IMG/VR virus record: IMGVR_UViG_3300045988_173323
Origin: a virus
Reading direction: 5' to 3' (one strand)
DNA length: 11,243 nt
In this document: piece after piece, positions 3,445 to 9,510 of the stretch
Layout of the letters: every line of letters begins with the position of its first letter
Numbering within the stretch: the first letter of the stretch is position 1
Translations under genes and position numbers: made by a program
Notes under the pieces: model-generated
Told to the model about the DNA's origin: nothing
Seen by the model: the letters and a program-made list of their open reading frames with translations, nothing else
Databases searched by the model: none

Positions 3445-3595
3445 AGTGAGAATTGCCGCGTTATAAAAAAAATAGAGGATTTTTTTTGGAGAGAATTTTA
3501 AGATAAGAGGATAATATGACGAGAAAAGTTTAGCTGTTTTGTTAAAAGACGAATTAAAAAGCTCTAATCGTTAAGAAAAAATTTAACAAAAGGTG

Positions 3596-3649
3596 TTGAA
3601 AAAGTGTACAAACCAATGATTTGTTGAAATTTTTAAGCAAATGTTGAAA
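3596..3649 (+). promoter_or_regulatory. Three direct TGTTGAAA repeats upstream of gene 3694..4311. Candidate operator or promoter-element array.
   Basis: TTGAAA at 3596-3601, 3624-3629 and 3644-3649, in contexts gtgTTGAAAaag, ttgTTGAAAttt and atgTTGAAAata. No well-spaced -10 partner is found, so a regulatory-site role is preferred over a plain promoter. Confidence 0.35.
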
Positions 3650-3693
3650 ATATTTTAAGTATAAATTTTATGTTTAAATATAAGGAGGGAAAT

Positions 3694-4311
3694 ATGGAAA
3701 TTCAAAAAAATTCAAGGCAAATACCTAGTAATAAAATTTATACTGCTAACAAGAAGTATTCAGATATTCTATATGGATATTTACAACATAATTCTCTTTT
3801 AGACAAAGAGTGCGGAATTAGGTATATACTTAAAAAAGATATTAGCTTCGTAAAAATTGCTAATGAATTAAAGATGCATAGACAAACAGTTTCAAATAAA
3901 TTTAAAGTTTTGATAGAACAAAATTTGATTAGATACAATGAAGAATTAAAAAGATATGAATTAGTTACTATTGATAAAACATTAGCAACTTTATTGCCAG
4001 ATGAAACAGTTAGGATTTGTTATAACACTTTGCAAGATAGATGTTTAAGTATATTGGCTTATTTATTAAAAACTTATATTCAACATAATGAATCTTCTTG
4101 TCAAATAAATTTAGATGTTATAAAAGAATATGTTGGAATTTGTGTTTCAAATAGAGGGTGTAATAATCAGGTTATAAAGGATAGTCTTTTAATATTGCAA
4201 AAGTTAGGTTTTATTCAGTACCATACAGAAAGAAAATTAGATGAGGAAACAGGTGGTATAAGAACTATTTATATTTTAGATAAAGTGTATAATTTTGTTA
4301 CTTTTGATTAA
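3694..4311 (+). CDS. HTH-containing DNA-binding protein (205 aa). Function is undetermined: regulator, or possibly a replication/initiator-type protein.
   Basis: Start moved to ATG 3694 (TAAGGAGGgaaatATG). Track start 3670 has no SD. HTH-like segment: IANELKMHRQTVSNKFKVLIEQNLI. Confidence 0.8.
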   Translation: MEIQKNSRQIPSNKIYTANKKYSDILYGYLQHNSLLDKECGIRYILKKDISFVKIANELKMHRQTVSNKFKVLIEQNLIRYNEELKRYELVTIDKTLATLLPDETVRICYNTLQDRCLSILAYLLKTYIQHNESSCQINLDVIKEYVGICVSNRGCNNQVIKDSLLILQKLGFIQYHTERKLDEETGGIRTIYILDKVYNFVTFD

Positions 4312-4341
4312 AAGATATAGTAAATAAAATACTAAGTAAAA

Positions 4342-4498
4342 TTGCAAAATGTCGAAAAAGTGTAACACAATATAATAGTAGAAGTAATTTCATTACTTCG
4401 TATTCAAGCACTTCGTGCTTTCATACTCGTAATGAAATTACTTCTTAGCCGCCGATAATTTTGCAAAATGTCGAAAAAGTGTAACACAATATAATAGT
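4342..4498. repeat. 38-bp exact direct repeat (4342-4379 and 4461-4498) flanking a 66-bp inverted-repeat element (4380-4445).
   Basis: DR is ttgcaaaatgtcgaaaaagtgtaacacaatataatagt. Each copy carries TGTCGAA at 4350-4356 / 4469-4475 and a TATAAT. The element between them has 17-bp perfect outer arms (agaagtaatttcattac / gtaatgaaattacttct) and an inner gcac-ttc-gtgc hairpin. Confidence 0.8.
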
Positions 4499-4570
4499 GG
4501 TATTAAAATTATACCAGAAATATTATATTATATATTATACATAACTATTATATAATAATAATAATAATAT

Positions 4571-4607
4571 AGGTAATGTATCATACCGAAGGTATGATAC
4601 ATTACCT
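4571..4607. repeat. Perfect palindrome or hairpin (17-bp stem, 3-nt loop) preceded by an (ATA)n run.
   Basis: aggtaatgtatcatacc-gaa-ggtatgatacattacct. No flanking T-run on either strand, so not a canonical terminator. Confidence 0.75.
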
Positions 4608-4619
4608 TAGTGTAAATTA

Positions 4620-5400
4620 AAATGAAGAGTTTTATGCGGGGTGGGGTATTTAGTAGTTGAATCCGCTTTGTTTTAGAGGGACTCTTGTTTAATTTTAAAA
4701 TGTCAAGGAACGTTTTAAAAAATGATTTGAAAATTTTAAGGTTTAAGTAAATTAGGAAAGTTTTTCGGAAGGCATGAGAAAAAGTAAGAAAAGAAGTATG
4801 GTATATTTAGAGAATGGCAAAGAATATTACTGAATAATAACAAAGAGTTAGAGAGTTTTGTTAAAAACGAGTTATGGTTTTTTGGTTAGAAAAGTGTGGA
4901 AGAGGGTATTTAAATTATAAGAGAAGTATGGGAGTGCGGAATTGAATTTAATTAAAGTGCTTCCGCATTTAAAAAGCAAGGTTAAATAAAAATTGCGGGT
5001 TACAGAATTGCTTAAATAAAATTATTAAAATTTTGCGTGAGGAGTTTGATTTTGGAGAGAATTAAGGGTAGCTTTAATAAAATATAAAGATTGGATTAAA
5101 GGTGCGTAAGGTTAAGATAATAAAATATTTTAGAATTAGAGGGAATTGAGGATAGGTTAGCAAAAATAATAAGACTGAGCAAAGAGAATTTAATGTTTGG
5201 GTTAAGAGAAAGTATAAGTTAGATTAAGAGAGAAGAAGGTTGAAGTATATAAAATAATAAGCGGAAGTGAGGATTTTGAGATTGGGTTAAGAGAGGAGTG
5301 AGATTAGAGTGAGAGAGCGTAGAATTGGAGTGTAGAGAGGATGAGAGTGAGGCGTGAGTGGAGAAAGGATAGAGCGAGGCTGAAAAAATGCGAGAAAAAG
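4620..5400 (+). other. About 780-bp strand-asymmetric non-coding tract. The + strand is purine-rich and nearly C-free (roughly 35 C, about 4-5%).
   Basis: I counted C per 60-nt line; nearly every line has 1-4, and 4921-4980 has 6. No ORF of credible composition exists on either strand. GAG/GTGAG-rich degenerate repeats occur, e.g. gggttaagaga twice and GAGGAnTTTGAnnTTGG twice. It lies between convergent genes. Confidence 0.7.
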
Positions 5401-5403
5401 GTG

Positions 5404-5441
5404 AAAAAAATTGTGAGAGTGAAGTGCTCAGCCTCACTCTC
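5404..5441 (-). terminator. Rho-independent terminator for gene 5463..5858.
   Basis: Stem gagagtga (5415-5422) pairs with tcactctc (5434-5441). On the minus strand it is followed by T7 (plus aaaaaaa 5404-5410). It lies 22 bp past stop 5463. Confidence 0.65.
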
Positions 5442-5462
5442 CCTATCCTACCTCAGAGCTCT

Positions 5463-5858
5463 TTATACGAGCCCAGAGAGGATTTTTCTAATAATTTCAT
5501 CATCTGACAGAGCTTTTTCATTCTCCCGTTTTACATCTCTTTTCAGTTTATCTGTATCTACTCTTTTAACTCTAATTCTTGTCCTTGGAAGACCATCCAT
5601 TTTACCAAAAGCTTCAATAGTCTTTTCCATCTTAGTAAACTCTGTCATAAGATTTTTTCTATCCTCAGCAGACTCTTTTTTATCAATAGCTCCAAGAGCA
5701 ATTCCATACGCTACAAACGCGTCAACCAATTTGTTTCTCGCATCTACAATCGCCTTTGTGCGGGTTTCCTTAGTCTGCTCCGCCTCGATTTCAGCTCTTA
5801 CCGCCTTAAGAATTTCATCTGTTGTTTTGCCTTCTGCGATCATTCTTTTAATATCCAT
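5463..5858 (-). CDS. Hypothetical charged, probably alpha-helical protein (131 aa).
   Basis: RBS AAAAGGAGaacatactATG. Normal amino-acid composition, Lys/Glu-rich (MDIKRMIAEGKTTDEILKAVRAEIEAEQ...). It has its own promoter and terminator. Confidence 0.8.
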   Translation of the reverse strand: MDIKRMIAEGKTTDEILKAVRAEIEAEQTKETRTKAIVDARNKLVDAFVAYGIALGAIDKKESAEDRKNLMTEFTKMEKTIEAFGKMDGLPRTRIRVKRVDTDKLKRDVKRENEKALSDDEIIRKILSGLV

Positions 5859-5905
5859 AGTATGTTCTCCTTTTGAAATGTTTATTTGTTTTTCTTTATG
5901 TATAT

Positions 5906-5934
5906 ATTATATCAAAAAATTATAGAAAATTCAA
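5906..5934 (-). promoter_or_regulatory. Sigma-A promoter (TTGAAT, 17 bp, TGaTATAAT) for 5463..5858.
   Basis: Minus strand reads ccTTTGAATtttctataattttttgaTATAAT. The -35 is plus 5929-5934 and the -10 is plus 5906-5911. Confidence 0.6.
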
Positions 5935-6175
5935 AGGGGAAGACATCTTTCTAGCTATTGTTGGGCTTAATTAGTTTCCAAAAATTTTAAATGAGATAAG
6001 GCTCGACGTAAAAATGGAAGGCGGAAAATAAAAATGGCTTTTTTTACTATTGTATCATATATTTTGTTAAAAATCAAGCGGAGAGAGGTGAGGTATGTTG
6101 AAATTGCGGGATTCTAGAGTAGTGATTCAAAATTCCAAACATCTAGCGAAAAAGCCCATATGGACGATCTTTGGG

Positions 6176-6241
6176 GTAGGTCGGATCCGAGTCCTTTGAA
6201 CTCGGACCGCTGATTATATCACAGCCGCCGCGTTTTGTCAA
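6176..6241 (-). promoter_or_regulatory. Consensus promoter (TTGACA, 17 bp, TGaTATAAT) whose transcript starts directly with an AGCGG-plus-hairpin element.
   Basis: -35 is plus 6236-6241 and -10 is plus 6213-6218, with an exact 17-bp spacer. Downstream on the minus strand: cagcggtccgagttcaaaggactcggatccgacc (stem ccgagt/actcgg). It reads toward 5463..5858, about 350 nt away. Confidence 0.55.
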
Positions 6242-6293
6242 TAGGCAAATTATATAAATTTTTCATTATTTTTTTAGTAATATTGCACAAAAA

Positions 6294-6347
6294 GTCATTT
6301 TTACCAAAAATTTCATTAAAAATAGGATTTTTTTTGGTAAAAATGAC
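6294..6347. repeat. 17-bp inverted repeat with a 20-bp spacer.
   Basis: gtcatttttaccaaaaa (6294-6310) pairs with tttttggtaaaaatgac (6331-6347). Confidence 0.7.
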
Positions 6348-6365
6348 TAAAATAAATAAAAATGT

Positions 6366-6523: not shown

Positions 6524-6919
6524 TTACTCCTCTACAGCTTCCTCTTCCTCTTTTGCAAGAGAGAAATAAGGAACTCTTTTTTCAACTGTTCTAACTACCT
6601 CTCCAGATTCGATAAGCTGTTTAAGAAGAGCCGATAATTTCTGAGAAGAAAGTTTACTCATTTCAGAGTTTTCCTTAATCATGGTTGAAACTGTAACAGG
6701 TTTATCAAATAACTCCAAAGCTACAAGAATAAGTTTTTTGACTTCCTCATTTTCTTTCTGGTTTTTGGTTTTTTTACCGCTGGAAGATTTTTTATTCAAC
6801 AGCTCGATTTCATGTCTGAGAAAGTTAAGTGCTTCTTCTTTTGGTTCAAAGCTACTTTCTTCCAGAAAAGCACTGATAGTTTCAAACCAATCTTTTTTTG
6901 TCATTTTGTCTTTCATCAT
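6524..6919 (-). CDS. Small acidic-tailed protein with a conserved C-terminal winged-helix-like domain (family A, copy 1), about 131 aa.
   Basis: Start set at ATG 6919 (GAGGTaatgaatATG, 7-nt spacing). It is paralogous to 9103..9510, with a near-identical C-terminal half PVTVSTMIKENSEMSKLSSQKLSALLKQLIESGEVVRTVEKRVPYFSLAKEEEE. Confidence 0.8.
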   Translation of the reverse strand: MMKDKMTKKDWFETISAFLEESSFEPKEEALNFLRHEIELLNKKSSSGKKTKNQKENEEVKKLILVALELFDKPVTVSTMIKENSEMSKLSSQKLSALLKQLIESGEVVRTVEKRVPYFSLAKEEEEAVEE

Positions 6920-6952
6920 ATTCATTACCTCTTTCTTTCTTTTGATATATTT

Positions 6953-8464: not shown

Positions 8465-8499
8465 ATTAAATACCTCTTTCTTATTTATTTTATGTATAC

Positions 8500-8528
8500 A
8501 TTATATCAAAAGAAAAAATAAAAGTCAA
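8500..8528 (-). promoter_or_regulatory. Consensus promoter (TTGACT, 17 bp, TGaTATAAT).
   Basis: -10 is plus 8500-8505 and -35 is plus 8523-8528. Confidence 0.6.
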
Positions 8529-8559
8529 TGGCATTTTGCACAAAGTATAATAAAATATT

Positions 8560-8760
8560 TTGTCTATTTTGACTATTGACAAGTTTAGCATTGTGCATAA
8601 CAGAGAAAATTGGCGAATTTTGATATAAATTTTTGTTCATTTTACCTATTGACAAAGAATTTTGTGCAAAACAGAGAATTTTGGGATAAAAAATTTTTTA
8701 TTTTTGTGCATTTTTTCTCTTGACAAAATTGTTAGCGTGTGATATAATGGATATTTCGGT
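8560..8760. repeat. Three tandem degenerate units of about 60-70 bp. Each has a TTGACA followed by a TTGTGCA(a/t)AACAGAGAA-type box. Only the last unit retains a consensus -10.
   Basis: ctaTTGACAagtttagcattgtgcataacagagaaaattgg; cctaTTGACAaagaattttgtgcaaaacagagaattttgg; ctcTTGACAaaattgttagcgtgtgaTATAATgg. Confidence 0.6.
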
Positions 8761-8813
8761 CGCCTTGATCCAAGGCGACCCGCTATTATATCACACTTTC
8801 GGGTGCTTGTCAA
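8720..8813. promoter_or_regulatory. Face-to-face (convergent) consensus promoters on opposite strands, flanking a nested palindrome.
   Basis: Plus: TTGACA 8720-8725, 17 bp, TATAAT 8743-8748. Minus: -35 at plus 8808-8813, -10 at plus 8785-8790, 17-bp spacer. Between them: gtgtgatataat..ggtcgcc-ttgatccaa-ggcgacc..attatatcacac. Confidence 0.6.
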
Positions 8814-9024
8814 TAGGCAAAATAAACAAAATTAAAAAATTTTTGAGCATTATCTTTGTTACATTTTCACAAAATTATAGACTGGAACTCTTTGTGCAAC
8901 AATACCAAAATTATAAAAATTTTTTAGCTATTTTTTGTAATTTATGTACATTGACTTTTTTGTTCTCTGGTATTTTTGAATAAAAAACATCCCTCCAGCA
9001 GCGGATTTTTTGTGCAAAAAGTAG

Positions 9025-9072
9025 AAAAAAAAATGCACAAAAAGGAGGACGGATTTTGTGCAATCCGCCCTC
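9025..9072 (-). terminator. Rho-independent terminator for 9103..9510.
   Basis: Stem gaggacggat (9045-9054) pairs with atccgccctc (9063-9072). It is perfect with one G-U wobble in minus-strand RNA. The minus-strand downstream is cuuuuugugcauuuuuuuuu. Confidence 0.6.
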
Positions 9073-9102
9073 TTGACAAGGTTTATAAGTTACTTTTTAG
9101 TT

Positions 9103-9510
9103 TTACTCTTCTTCCTCAACTTCTTCTTCTTTTGCAAGAGAAAAGTAAGGAACTCTTTTTTCAACTGTCCTGACCACTTTGCCTGCCTCAATCATTTTTT
9201 TCAACAGTGCAGATAACTTCTGAGAAGAAAGCTTACTCATTTCGGCGTTCTCTTTAATCATTGTAGTTACCGTGACAGGTTTACCAAACAGCTCTAAGGC
9301 AATTCCAATAAGTTCCATAAGCTCCTCATTTTCTTTAATGTGAGCTGTTTTCTTTTTGCCTGGTGCTGAAGATTTCTTATTTAACAGTTCAATCTCGTGA
9401 TTGATGAAGTCAAGTGTTTCTATTTTTTTGTCAAAGTTTTCGGTTTTTTCTACGATGCCAACCAGCAGTTTGAAAAAGTCTTTTTTTGTCATTTTTGTTG
9501 TGTTTGTCAT
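9103..9510 (-). CDS. Family A copy 2: small acidic-tailed protein with a winged-helix-like C-terminal domain (135 aa).
   Basis: RBS AAGAGGAatttaattATG. The C-terminal half is nearly identical to the 6524..6919 product. Tail EEEVEEEE. Confidence 0.8.
   Translation of the reverse strand: MTNTTKMTKKDFFKLLVGIVEKTENFDKKIETLDFINHEIELLNKKSSAPGKKKTAHIKENEELMELIGIALELFGKPVTVTTMIKENAEMSKLSSQKLSALLKKMIEAGKVVRTVEKRVPYFSLAKEEEVEEEE

Follow-up and report, generated by a model that had tools for sequence, protein, structure and literature searches.

The question raised by this locus is what keeps about 0.8 kb of phage DNA nearly free of C on one strand, and what such a tract does in a place where no gene can be recognized. 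The tract lies in an 11,243-nt stretch of DNA (the window), and its source is a human-gut phage of roughly 137 kb, Herelleviridae-like. The features of the locus are listed in Table 1.

Table 1. Coordinates of the C-poor tract and of the features around it, in window positions.
Feature	Position	Strand	Basis and remarks
Iteron/operator copy TGTTGAAAAAGTGTACAA ahead of the rep-like gene	3594..3611	+	Pattern search; PWM 24.0 bits
213-aa protein with two winged-helix domains and a Rep/pi-like fold; PHROG 'ScpB'	3670..4311	+	Structural matches
Direct repeat 1: iteron 4350-4367 and perfect -10 TATAAT 4371-4376, taken as promoter P1	4337..4387	+	Repeat and pattern search
Leader hairpin, 17-bp outer stem, apex CGAAG on the - strand	4380..4445		-28.8 kcal/mol, z -10.8
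Direct repeat 2: iteron 4469-4486 and -10 4490-4495, promoter P2	4456..4506	+	Repeat and pattern search
AT-rich, DUE-like stretch	4517..4576		Nearest-neighbour energy -53.2 vs mean -71.8 (sd 5.5)
Perfect 17-bp palindrome, apex CCGAAGG	4571..4607		Repeat search; seven pairs with compensatory changes
C-depleted, purine-rich non-coding tract	4620..5400	+	Counts, alignment, fold tests; small hairpins hold most of the clustered C
A-tract repeats of ~11 nt, GTGAAAAAAT type	5383..5416		TRF; 2-6 copies across relatives
Intrinsic terminator of the convergent 131-aa gene, T-run 5405-5414	5415..5441	-	Terminator scan; alignment fold z -6
Convergent 131-aa gene, syntenic anchor	5463..5858	-	100 homologs, one named 'MAG TPA Caudoviricetes sp.'

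Composition and coding capacity of the tract

The + strand of the tract contains 307 A, 35 C, 213 G and 226 T (exact count over 781 nt). This is 4.5% C, 27.3% G and 67% purine, compared with 15.1% C window-wide. An earlier note, made from the letters alone, had estimated 4-5% C over some 780 bp that remained G-rich, and the exact count agrees with this estimate. The composition and skew check that it had proposed places C far below the window average (binomial p = 1.3e-23 for the deficit against the remaining window). When the scarcest of G and C was counted per 781-nt window, the minimum of 34-35 fell at the tract, and the next non-overlapping minimum was 56, at position 2912. There is no 781-nt window poorer in either base. 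The composition is thus abnormal for this DNA, as the note had maintained, and the tract is the strongest single-base depletion anywhere in the 11.2 kb.

The C-depleted segment with the maximum score spans 4488-5426. GC skew peaks at +0.6 to +0.85 and has change points at ~2900, which is the divergent promoter region, and at ~5430, which is the convergent terminator. These positions indicate the borders of a + strand unit, not those of a putative origin. In the relative L006, C per 500 nt is 3.4% in the tract against 6-7% in the most skewed coding regions, a depletion of about twofold. Another + strand spacer, at 3445-3669 and presumably transcribed, has 6.2% C, which is not significantly different from the tract (Fisher p = 0.29). 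The non-coding region at 8465-9102, which is also long, shows no skew, and this counts against reading the tract as an untranslated transcript.

The tract is non-coding. There is no long stop-free frame in the standard code on either strand, in line with the earlier statement that no plausible ORF is present. The ORFs at 5219..5437 (- strand) and 5341..5925 (+ strand), previously dismissed as artefacts, are indeed mechanical only; indels of relatives whose lengths are not multiples of three cluster there. The variable sites in the tract show no 3-base periodicity (46/42/51). No convincing small ORF was found in the tract, the best one having 19 codons (4774-4833) without a properly spaced SD. 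An alternative code or a hidden gene was rejected because recoding of TAA alone opens the - strand, in all three frames alike.

Features on both sides of the tract

The tract is placed between convergent genes, as had been described, with the 213-aa gene on the + strand and the 131-aa gene on the - strand. The best structural matches of the 213-aa protein are pi, RepE and a TrfA-type Rep, and it has the two-winged-helix (WH1-WH2) architecture of such initiators. By sequence it does not fall into Pfam Rep_3 or an equivalent curated family. Pfam returned a weak generic HTH below the cut-off, NCBIfam a weak match to ArsR/Lrs14, and the PDB profile search MarR/ArsR regulators with E of at least 0.002.

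The 18-bp site TGTCGAAAAAGTGTAACA occurs in two exact copies and one copy with three mismatches, all on the + strand (3 matches vs 0.03 expected). There are weaker iteron copies as well (3622 and 3642), and the -35 region of the first + strand promoter is overlapped by a partial one (2923). In relatives, the direct copies number 2-5. The arrangement of the iteron with TATAATAG is observed in all relatives, ahead of + strand genes. Together with a leader hairpin it is found in eight lineages, in six of which an RBS and real, mutually homologous + strand genes follow. In the window, the predicted -35 (ATGTCG) is poor, and the promoter scan ranked neither P1 nor P2. DnaA boxes (TTATNCACA, ≤1 mismatch) are not enriched, with 15 matches vs 15.8 expected and none clustered at the locus. 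The A-tract repeats at the 3' end were considered as extra iterons and rejected; only the L003 group gave a moderate score (PWM 13.4 bits), not the window or the other lineages.

The leader hairpin begins at the expected transcript start. Single-sequence folds of the eight lineages contain such a hairpin in every case (z -5 to -11), with unrelated stems and with GCGNAGC or CGAAG at the apex on the - strand. In L005 it is 100% identical despite differing flanks. It folds equally well on both strands, and this, together with the - strand DNA motif GCGNAGC, points to a role at the DNA level rather than at the RNA level. A small hairpin (4498-4516) comes after the -10 of P2. No 60-bp duplex of the window is less stable than the AT-rich stretch that lies next to it (3.4 sd below the mean). 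This block is missing from L005 and from the gene-carrying relatives.

The loop of the palindrome flips its orientation (GAA or TTC) between near-identical relatives. Its apex CCGAAGG is the mini-hairpin of RSF1010 ssiA, and GCGNAGC is a DNA mini-hairpin motif described as 'extraordinarily stable' and found where phage ssDNA is primed (PMC13037366). By these motifs, the palindrome (CCGAAGG) and the leader hairpin (GCGNAGC/CGAAG) are both predicted to carry an ssi-type mini-hairpin cap. The palindrome was also considered as a physical genome end. This was rejected, as contig ends scatter over 4552-4607 and other repeats and one 134-kb contig reads through; the contig breaks at the palindrome look like an assembly break.

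The Rep/pi-like neighbour, the overlap of iterons and promoters, the leader hairpin, the least stable DNA and the palindrome together make the layout origin-like. The whole interval 4312-5462 had been proposed as a cis-acting locus. The part that does look like one is 4312-4607, on account of the Rep/pi-like protein, the iterons, the least stable DNA and the mini-hairpin apices.

At the other end, AA/TT dinucleotides show a periodicity of 11 in 5330-5420. The C-rich + strand tail at 5427-5462 overlaps the terminator of the convergent gene, and no canonical + strand terminator was found at the 3' end of the tract. A homolog of the 131-aa gene sits in the same position in L028.

Conservation, folding and the gene slot of relatives

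In about ten close relatives, the tract is 84-98% identical. The segment 4620-5295 is nearly indel-free among them; 11 aligned sequences show indels, all of a single base, at only five positions of ~700 nt. The divergence of the tract is 7-9%, compared with 12-17% at 4-fold sites of the flanking genes, or about half of the silent-site rate. In L004 and L005, the tract is 85-92% identical whereas the flanking genes are only 73-79% identical. The primary sequence is best conserved in 4608-4760 and 4930-5060, two segments with invariant small G-C hairpins. Substitutions are at equilibrium but strand-asymmetric, with A>G at 11 and T>C at 4.2 per 100 sites.

A syntenic C-depleted tract, which the note had suggested seeking in related genomes, is present: close relatives keep the sequence, and distant ones the composition alone. 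Searches against the distant relatives with blastn (word size 7) and nhmmer gave only a marginal match, in the 3' repeat region of L023. A similarity to L019 and L020 around 4990-5056, seen by eye, was dropped as it had no statistical support. Near and distant DNA searches of annotated phage and plasmid collections gave no match, nor did a host search of 185,579 species genomes. The tract contains no internal periodic repeats and no four-run G-quadruplex motif.

Tests with column-shuffled alignments detected no conserved RNA fold over 4695-5340 on either strand (z -1 to +0.9), contrary to the earlier suggestion of a structured element. Across this segment, the consensus fold gains no more than 0 to -17 kcal/mol per 150 nt. 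A composition of 67% purine and 4.5% C leaves the tract with few possible stable pairs. Apart from the terminator at the 3' end, the fold test picks out only some small hairpins of the 5' half. The small conserved hairpins are at 4636-4666, 4675-4685, 4856-4877 and 4936-4966. In the hairpin at 4856-4877, a pair changes from C-G to U-G to U-A, a path that keeps pairing in + strand RNA only and is a hint at this strand. Rfam 15, including GOLLD, ROOL, OLE and raiA, gave no match to the tract at E<=1, and two chance miRNA matches lie elsewhere in the window. No tRNA or tmRNA genes were found.

In distant relatives, two to four small genes on the + strand occupy the slot of the tract, and a shorter C-poor stretch that is non-coding comes after them. 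Third-position C is 1.3-5.7% in these slot genes and 3.7% in the rep-like gene of the window, compared with 7-15% in the leftward genes. The slot genes thus avoid C at silent sites, indicating that C-poverty is a property of the sense strand of the rightward unit and not the mark of a folded RNA. The near-exclusion of one base is therefore not private to the tract, as it had first appeared. The content of the slot differs between lineages, suggesting variable cargo.

Candidate roles of the tract and known systems

We infer + strand transcription, the link to Rho and any replication role of the tract from its sequence and its setting. Our preferred reading, with a little under an even chance, is that the tract may be the untranslated body of a rightward + strand unit in an origin-like module, which Rho would make impassable in the leftward direction only. 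Of the options named in the note, we thus favour a transcript that avoids C over a polypurine origin strand. Transcription would start at the two copies of the conserved promoter (-10 at 4371 and 4490), whose -35 regions coincide with the 18-bp iterons, the putative binding sites of the adjacent Rep/pi-like protein. RNA polymerase would pass through the leader hairpin, the AT-rich DNA and the palindrome, and the transcript would extend ~0.8 kb further, as far as the A-tract repeats and the terminator region that the convergent gene also uses. The rightward RNA, though free of ribosomes, would escape Rho-dependent termination, and Rho would find an ideal substrate in leftward read-through RNA. 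The tract would then act as a one-way street, where rightward transcription passes and leftward transcription is halted before it reaches the origin and the rep region.

Rho loading requires at least 78 nt of uninterrupted C>G in YC-rich, unstructured RNA (PMC6144790). The + strand RNA has C>G in 0% of its 78-nt windows and 0.9 YC per 100 nt, and is predicted to be almost structure-free. Having no C>G stretches and less than 1 YC per 100 nt, it should escape Rho by the known loading rules. The - strand RNA has 27% C and 4.5% G, with C>G in 100% of its 78-nt windows and 17.8 YC per 100 nt. Its computed consensus fold energy is ~0, and by calculation it has the composition of a rut site. Avoidance of Rho accounts neither for the retention of the primary sequence, beyond its composition, with so few indels nor for the production of 0.8 kb of RNA that is not translated.

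The leading option of the earlier note, a structured non-coding RNA such as a large ribozyme- or riboswitch-like RNA, has become highly improbable. The single-sequence minimum free energy is low (z = -2.65 on the + strand, -3.63 on the - strand) and a few small hairpins are conserved, but these z-scores are due to the terminal hairpins, whereas the alignment z is near 0 over 4695-5340. Among 230 RNAalifold pairs, compensatory changes are confined to the palindrome and one pair in the terminator region, and Rfam is again without a match. The tract might instead specify a trans-acting RNA, an abundant, single-stranded, purine-rich early transcript that ties up a host or phage factor, for instance a nuclease, an RNA-binding protein or RNA rich in pyrimidines. 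The conserved primary sequence with its invariant small G-C hairpins, the protective hairpins at the 5' end and the long non-coding RNAs known from Herelleviridae (PMC10383478) are consistent with it. We consider it quite unlikely, because the sequence is unalignable beyond the close lineage, SD-like and GGA motifs are not enriched, and internal repeats and matches to Rfam families, including GOLLD and ROOL, are absent. A sponge for CsrA or SD was rejected on motif counts (GGA 19 vs 21.1 expected, GGAG 6 vs 6.7, GGAGG 0 vs 1.6). It is also rather unlikely that the tract is a remnant of lost cargo genes or neutral filler, which would be functionless and would owe its sense-strand composition to the same mutational or transcription-linked bias as its surroundings. 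Two to four genes are found here in relatives whose Rep is 45-79% identical, the slot is variable cargo across lineages, the C level of the tract equals the silent-site C of the slot genes, and the tract has no conserved fold or enriched motif, all as expected of filler. However, no trace of such genes turned up in the tract when 19 cargo proteins from seven relative loci were used as tblastn queries. The slow divergence, about twofold below 4-fold sites, the rarity of indels and the excess identity in L004 and L005 also argue against neutrality, as does the retention of non-coding C-poor DNA before the terminator in every lineage.

An origin-linked R-loop or priming zone is unlikely as well. 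The transcript would stay on the pyrimidine-rich template, and the displaced + strand would prime synthesis or load a helicase, in the manner of ColE1, T4 oriF/oriG or strand-displacement origins of the RSF1010 type; deamination of exposed C and A would make the C-poverty and G-richness partly mutational, and A>G is raised on the + strand. The Rep/pi-like fold of the neighbouring protein, the direct iterons, the position of the least stable DNA immediately after iteron 2, and the mini-hairpin apices of the palindrome (CCGAAGG, as in RSF1010 ssiA) and of the leader hairpins (GCGNAGC on the - strand in 8/8) fit such a zone. There is also a G-cluster, GGGGTGGGG, at 4638-4646, soon after the start, and no other 200 bp of the window favours the hybrid as much as 5201-5400 does (-0.117 kcal/mol per bp). 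In L022, three iterons stand directly before A-rich repeats and a GC box, an order also seen in RK2 oriV. On the other hand, the tract-average hybrid gain is only -0.02 kcal/mol per bp, so that the hybrid is not favoured over the duplex, and 27% G falls short of the 40% commonly required of R-loop elongation zones. Protein genes occupy the slot in six related lineages. The skew ends exactly at the borders of transcription units with no switch at the putative origin, the adjoining 131-aa gene has no matching bias, and there is no excess of DnaA boxes. At four promoters the -35 overlaps a Rep-like site, as is expected for a plain transcription factor. A combined reading, of equally low probability, would make the tract a dedicated cis element of a new, transcription-coupled type of iteron origin in Herelleviridae-like phages, where a long, nearly C-free and fold-free transcript or R-loop from Rep-controlled promoters would insulate and activate the origin. 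The composition would then be selected for Rho survival while untranslated and for abortion of opposing transcription.

To our knowledge, it is poorly established where large Firmicutes myoviruses (Herelleviridae and relatives) start their replication. A pi/RepE-like protein, promoter-fused iterons, hairpins with mini-hairpin caps and an easily melted segment would together form a clonable origin candidate. The tract itself may serve as a natural test of whether composition alone hides an untranslated RNA from Rho and exposes its antisense, and of whether prolonged single-strandedness shapes composition. If it is only transcribed filler, its value is smaller; it would then warn that sense-strand bias alone can give extreme depletion without RNA structure.

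Like the large non-coding RNAs of Firmicutes phages (GOLLD, ROOL and the lncRNAs of Kayvirus phages), the locus has a long non-coding region, here in a Herelleviridae-like genome (PMC10383478). It differs from them in having no tRNA neighbourhood, no conserved structure, no Rfam match and a very different composition. ColE1 RNA II, T4 oriF/oriG and mitochondrial LSP/CSB show the same succession of a promoter and G clusters, with G>C on the non-template strand and an adjoining unwinding element. Here, in contrast, the hybrid gain is near zero over most of the tract, G is modest, and relatives have genes in this place. The - strand transcript resembles rut regions and C>G bubbles over 780 nt, and the + strand transcript is their exact opposite. 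Known rut sites are 60-90 nt, compared with 0.8 kb here. We know of no 0.8-kb C>G bubble or long Rho-unloadable transcript that has been described as a dedicated element. Like ssiA/ssiB of RSF1010 oriV and G4-type priming sites, the locus has stable hairpins adjoining iterons and AT-rich DNA. However, the 11-kb window has no recognizable RepB'-like primase or RepA-like helicase, and the hairpins, here candidate priming sites, are also at or near the 5' end of a predicted transcript.

Iteron origins with Rep_3 initiators (F RepE/ori2, R6K pi/gamma ori, RK2 TrfA/oriV) belong to plasmids, whereas this is a large genome of a virulent-type phage, with no sequence-level Rep_3 match. Only two iterons are present in the window, well apart and both fused to a promoter, and DnaA boxes are at chance level. 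A 0.8-kb C-poor spacer, or genes in the relatives, separates the iterons from the A-rich repeats and a GC-rich box. Rep proteins of the Rep_3 class select one of the two DUE strands for binding (PMC4081077). What the locus shares with these origins is the two-winged-helix class of the initiator-like protein, the direct 18-bp sites beside its gene with one copy in front as for autoregulation, and the easily melted AT-rich stretch beside the repeats.

Composition and conservation of the tract

An exact count gives 35 C in the 781 nt of the + strand at 4620-5400 (4.5%), with 27.3% G, 39.3% A and 28.9% T. In the rest of the window, C is 15.9% (binomial p 1.3e-23). The C depletion described in the earlier note is thus significant on exact counting. 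Among 781-nt windows, the tract has the fewest of any G/C base, and the lowest non-overlapping count elsewhere is 56, at 2912. The maximum-scoring C-depleted segment is 4488-5426, and GC skew in the tract rises to +0.85. Its few C residues are clustered: the small hairpins at 4636-4666 and 4936-4966 each contain a TCCGC that pairs with GCGG.

The tract had also been described as non-coding, and this holds. Stop-free stretches span 31-78 codons at the longest, only TAA recoding opens the - strand, in all frames, and variable sites among 11 homologous tract copies show no phase bias (46/42/51). The pair of mechanical 3' ORFs dismissed earlier as artefacts lies in a region with many indels among relatives. 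No small ORF in the tract was convincing, and Rfam and ARAGORN found nothing there. The C counts, the lack of coding and the absence of Rfam or ARAGORN matches together confirm the observation. A 19-codon ATG ORF at 4774-4833 (MRKSKKRSMVYLENGKEYY) is intact in nine of ten relatives; its translation is doubtful because its sole SD-like motif, GGAAGG, is 1 nt ahead of the ATG.

Ten distinct homologous copies in close relatives (L002-L017) are 84-98% identical to the tract. Between 4620 and 5295, indels are observed at only five positions, all single-base. Relatives vary at the 3' end (5331-5462), where an 11-nt repeat of the GTGAAAAAAT type is present two to six times. Variable sites in 4620-5330 number 139, including 99 A/G and 20 C/T. 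Polarised substitution counts (A>G 28, G>A 28; T>C 9, C>T 6) indicate that the composition is at equilibrium. New C is seldom created (T>C 4.2 per 100 T vs. A>G 11 per 100 A). The tract is under roughly twofold constraint and its conservation is not strong: its divergence from the window is 7-9%, and that of the flanking genes is 12-17% at 4-fold sites and 4-5.5% at codon positions 1 and 2. In L004 and L005, the tract is 85-92% identical vs. 73-79% for the flanking genes at the nucleotide level; mosaicism could contribute to this gap.

Organization of the locus in distant relatives

No DNA match to the window was found in annotated phage and plasmid records, nor any match in species genomes. 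The AAA ATPase (1089-2201) shares 44% identity with proteins from Enterococcus Kochikohdavirus phages of 140 kb. Metagenomic contigs of up to 138 kb encode ~100 close homologs of the 131-aa protein, whose gene lies convergently to the right of the tract; one is labelled "Caudoviricetes sp.", and one source is a human gut metagenome. Several observations thus indicate a ~137-kb Herelleviridae-like gut phage that is common and uncultivated.

Homologs of the Rep-like protein are found down to 38% identity. The distant loci are L025 (79%), L019 (73%), L026 (72%), L020/21 (67%), L022 (58%), L028 (45%) and L023 (43%). All those examined start with the rep-like gene, 2-5 direct iterons, TATAATAG and the leader hairpin. 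The order beyond was read in five loci with a contig spanning the slot, the DNA between this hairpin and the C-poor stretch. All five continue with a slot of variable content, 100-600 nt of C-poor non-coding DNA ended by 10-22-nt A-rich repeats, a GC-rich box, a short C-rich spacer and the terminator of a convergent gene; in L028, that gene is homologous to the 131-aa gene. In six distant lineages, the slot consists of two to four real small + strand genes, mutually homologous in groups, and no trace of them is present in the window tract. L023 has a GA-rich non-coding tract of 600 nt with 3% C. In Enterococcus phage VRE9_2, which encodes a "ScpB" of 30% identity, there is no tract. A C-poor tract is shared in sequence by close copies and in composition by distant loci, with which no alignment of the window tract was obtained. 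In L023, the GA-rich tract is followed on the same strand by 200 nt (5400-5600) in which C reaches 41% and G is 9-13%; its counterpart in the window is the short C-rich tail at 5427-5462.

Putative replication and transcription elements around the tract
Feature	Position	Strand	Remark
Iteron TGTCGAAAAAGTGTAACA, 18-bp	4350, 4469 (exact); 3594 (3 mismatches)		0.03 expected; 3594 ahead of the rep-like gene
Weaker iterons	3622, 3642; 2923		Family PWM; 2923 overlaps the -35 of the first promoter on the + strand
-10 boxes TATAAT (perfect)	4371, 4490		Each 3' of one downstream iteron
Leader hairpin	4380-4445		Very stable, z -10.8
AT-rich DNA	4517-4576		Least stable 60 bp of the entire window
Palindrome, perfect 17-bp	4571-4607		Stem compensated at seven pairs in L004, L005
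Intrinsic terminator, convergent 131-aa gene	5441-5415	-	Terminator scan

Predicted transcription and possible causes of C exclusion

C avoidance extends beyond non-coding DNA. The slot genes contain 5.8-10% C overall and 1.3-5.7% at third positions. Third-position C is 3.7% in the rep-like gene of the window vs. 7-15% in leftward genes, and the transcribed spacer at 3445-3669 has 6.2% C. GC skew changes at ~2900 and ~5430, coincident with the two limits of the + strand transcription unit. The C depletion of the tract is genuine and unusually strong, but is best read as the far end of a sense-strand bias that spans the region. Most economically, the tract would be the untranslated portion of a + strand unit driven by iteron-embedded promoters, and would have the sense-strand composition of that unit without amino-acid constraint.

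Either mutation or selection could keep C out. A mutational route would be deamination of the displaced or non-template strand. Rho requires ~60-80 nt of RNA that is unstructured, rich in C and YC and poor in G, and Rho signals are missing from templates without C>G bubbles (PMC6144790). In the predicted + transcript of the tract, C exceeds G in none of the 78-nt windows and YC density is 0.9 per 100 nt; in the unstructured - transcript, C exceeds G in all of them and YC density is 17.8 per 100 nt. From this contrast between strands, we infer that rightward RNA would be Rho-proof and leftward RNA aborted, which fits the composition data. Selection could thus protect the rightward untranslated RNA from Rho, and leftward read-through from the convergent gene past its terminator would be aborted short of the putative origin and rep region.

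A structured non-coding RNA, one of the options raised earlier, is unsupported and essentially excluded. Single-sequence folding gives z of -2.65 (+) and -3.63 (-), values that stem from terminal hairpins. With column shuffling (alifoldz-type, 150-column windows), z is -1 to +0.9 over 4695-5340 on the + strand, with a consensus energy of merely 0 to -17 kcal/mol; signal is confined to 4604-4744 and the terminator region 5342-5470. Among the 230 pairs of RNAalifold, compensatory pairs are observed only in the palindrome, plus one near the terminator. The hairpin at 4856-4877 shows the series C-G, U-G, U-A, which fits + strand RNA only. Tract RNA, if transcribed, would be essentially single-stranded. 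A less probable reading is an R-loop or priming zone, which would suit the G cluster at 4638, the origin-like surroundings and the last 200 bp, where a hybrid is favoured (-0.117 kcal/mol per bp); the tract-wide hybrid gain, however, is nil (-0.02 kcal/mol per bp), and the slot holds genes in relatives. The variable slot content and a C level like that of silent sites would agree with a decayed cargo remnant, but twofold constraint and the rarity of indels make this rather improbable. A trans-acting sponge RNA is quite improbable, motif enrichment being absent.

Other elements were observed in the window. A promoter-like AT-rich element is present at 2825-2900 and 5882-5934, in many copies in L019-L023, and precedes many small genes in every relative; it probably represents a family of strong early promoters (TTGAAT/TTGAAA, 17 nt, TGnTATAAT). 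A second conserved non-coding stretch, 5960-6360, separates the terminator of the 133-aa gene from the promoter of the 131-aa gene, with ~94% identity in close relatives, 62-66% in distant ones and a GC-rich hairpin near 6186-6210. It has no Rfam match and may be a small RNA; a 34-codon ORF with a strong SD (6095-6199) has an in-frame stop in most relatives. The 133-aa and 135-aa genes (6524-6925 and 9103-9510), less than 3 kb apart, are paralogous, because the C-terminal halves of their products are nearly identical (…KPVTV.TMIKEN.EMSKLSSQKLSALLK…VVRTVEKRVPYFSLAKEEE). The neighbouring 107-aa and 102-aa products appear related. The ~640 nt at 8465-9102 show neither a convincing ORF nor strand skew; a hairpin at 9043-9076 has a chance miRNA match.

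The origin-like module and known replication systems

Sequence searches with the 213-aa protein (3670-4311) yield only weak generic HTH matches, and its PHROG label is ScpB. Every iteron copy is direct, and a small hairpin follows the second downstream copy. DnaA boxes are not enriched. RepE/TrfA-class Rep proteins contact iterons and one specific strand of the adjacent DNA unwinding element (PMC4081077; PMC10602881). The earlier suggestion of a cis-acting locus agrees with the iterons, the meltable DNA and the mini-hairpin apices, from which we infer a possible origin function. Since its putative sites overlap four promoters, the 213-aa protein may just as well be an ordinary transcription factor.

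The 3-nt palindrome loop is GAA in the window, L017, L015, L005 and L004, and TTC in L014, L016, L003, L011 and L007. The flip is recurrent, because L014 is 97.6% identical to the window. Many metagenomic contigs stop within or just ahead of the palindrome, probably assembly breaks. A CGCGA-like motif is present 3' of the leader hairpin in several lineages.

The palindrome apex, CCGAAGG, is the same as the mini-hairpin of RSF1010 ssiA (PMC13037366). On the - strand, the leader hairpin apex is GCGNAGC or CGAAG in all eight lineages (CGAAG in the window) on unrelated stems; GCGNAGC is the "extraordinarily stable" DNA mini-hairpin of phage and plasmid priming sites (PMC13037366).

The context is more notable than the tract itself: a module of pi/RepE-like protein, iterons, promoters and mini-hairpins is conserved in a large gut phage. 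As a replication origin it is plausible and open to testing; its general kind is known, and its setting is new. In RK2 oriV, iterons are followed by AT-rich repeats and then a GC-rich region. The second, three-iteron array of L022 (5840-6060), which abuts A-rich repeats and the GC-rich box, matches this order.
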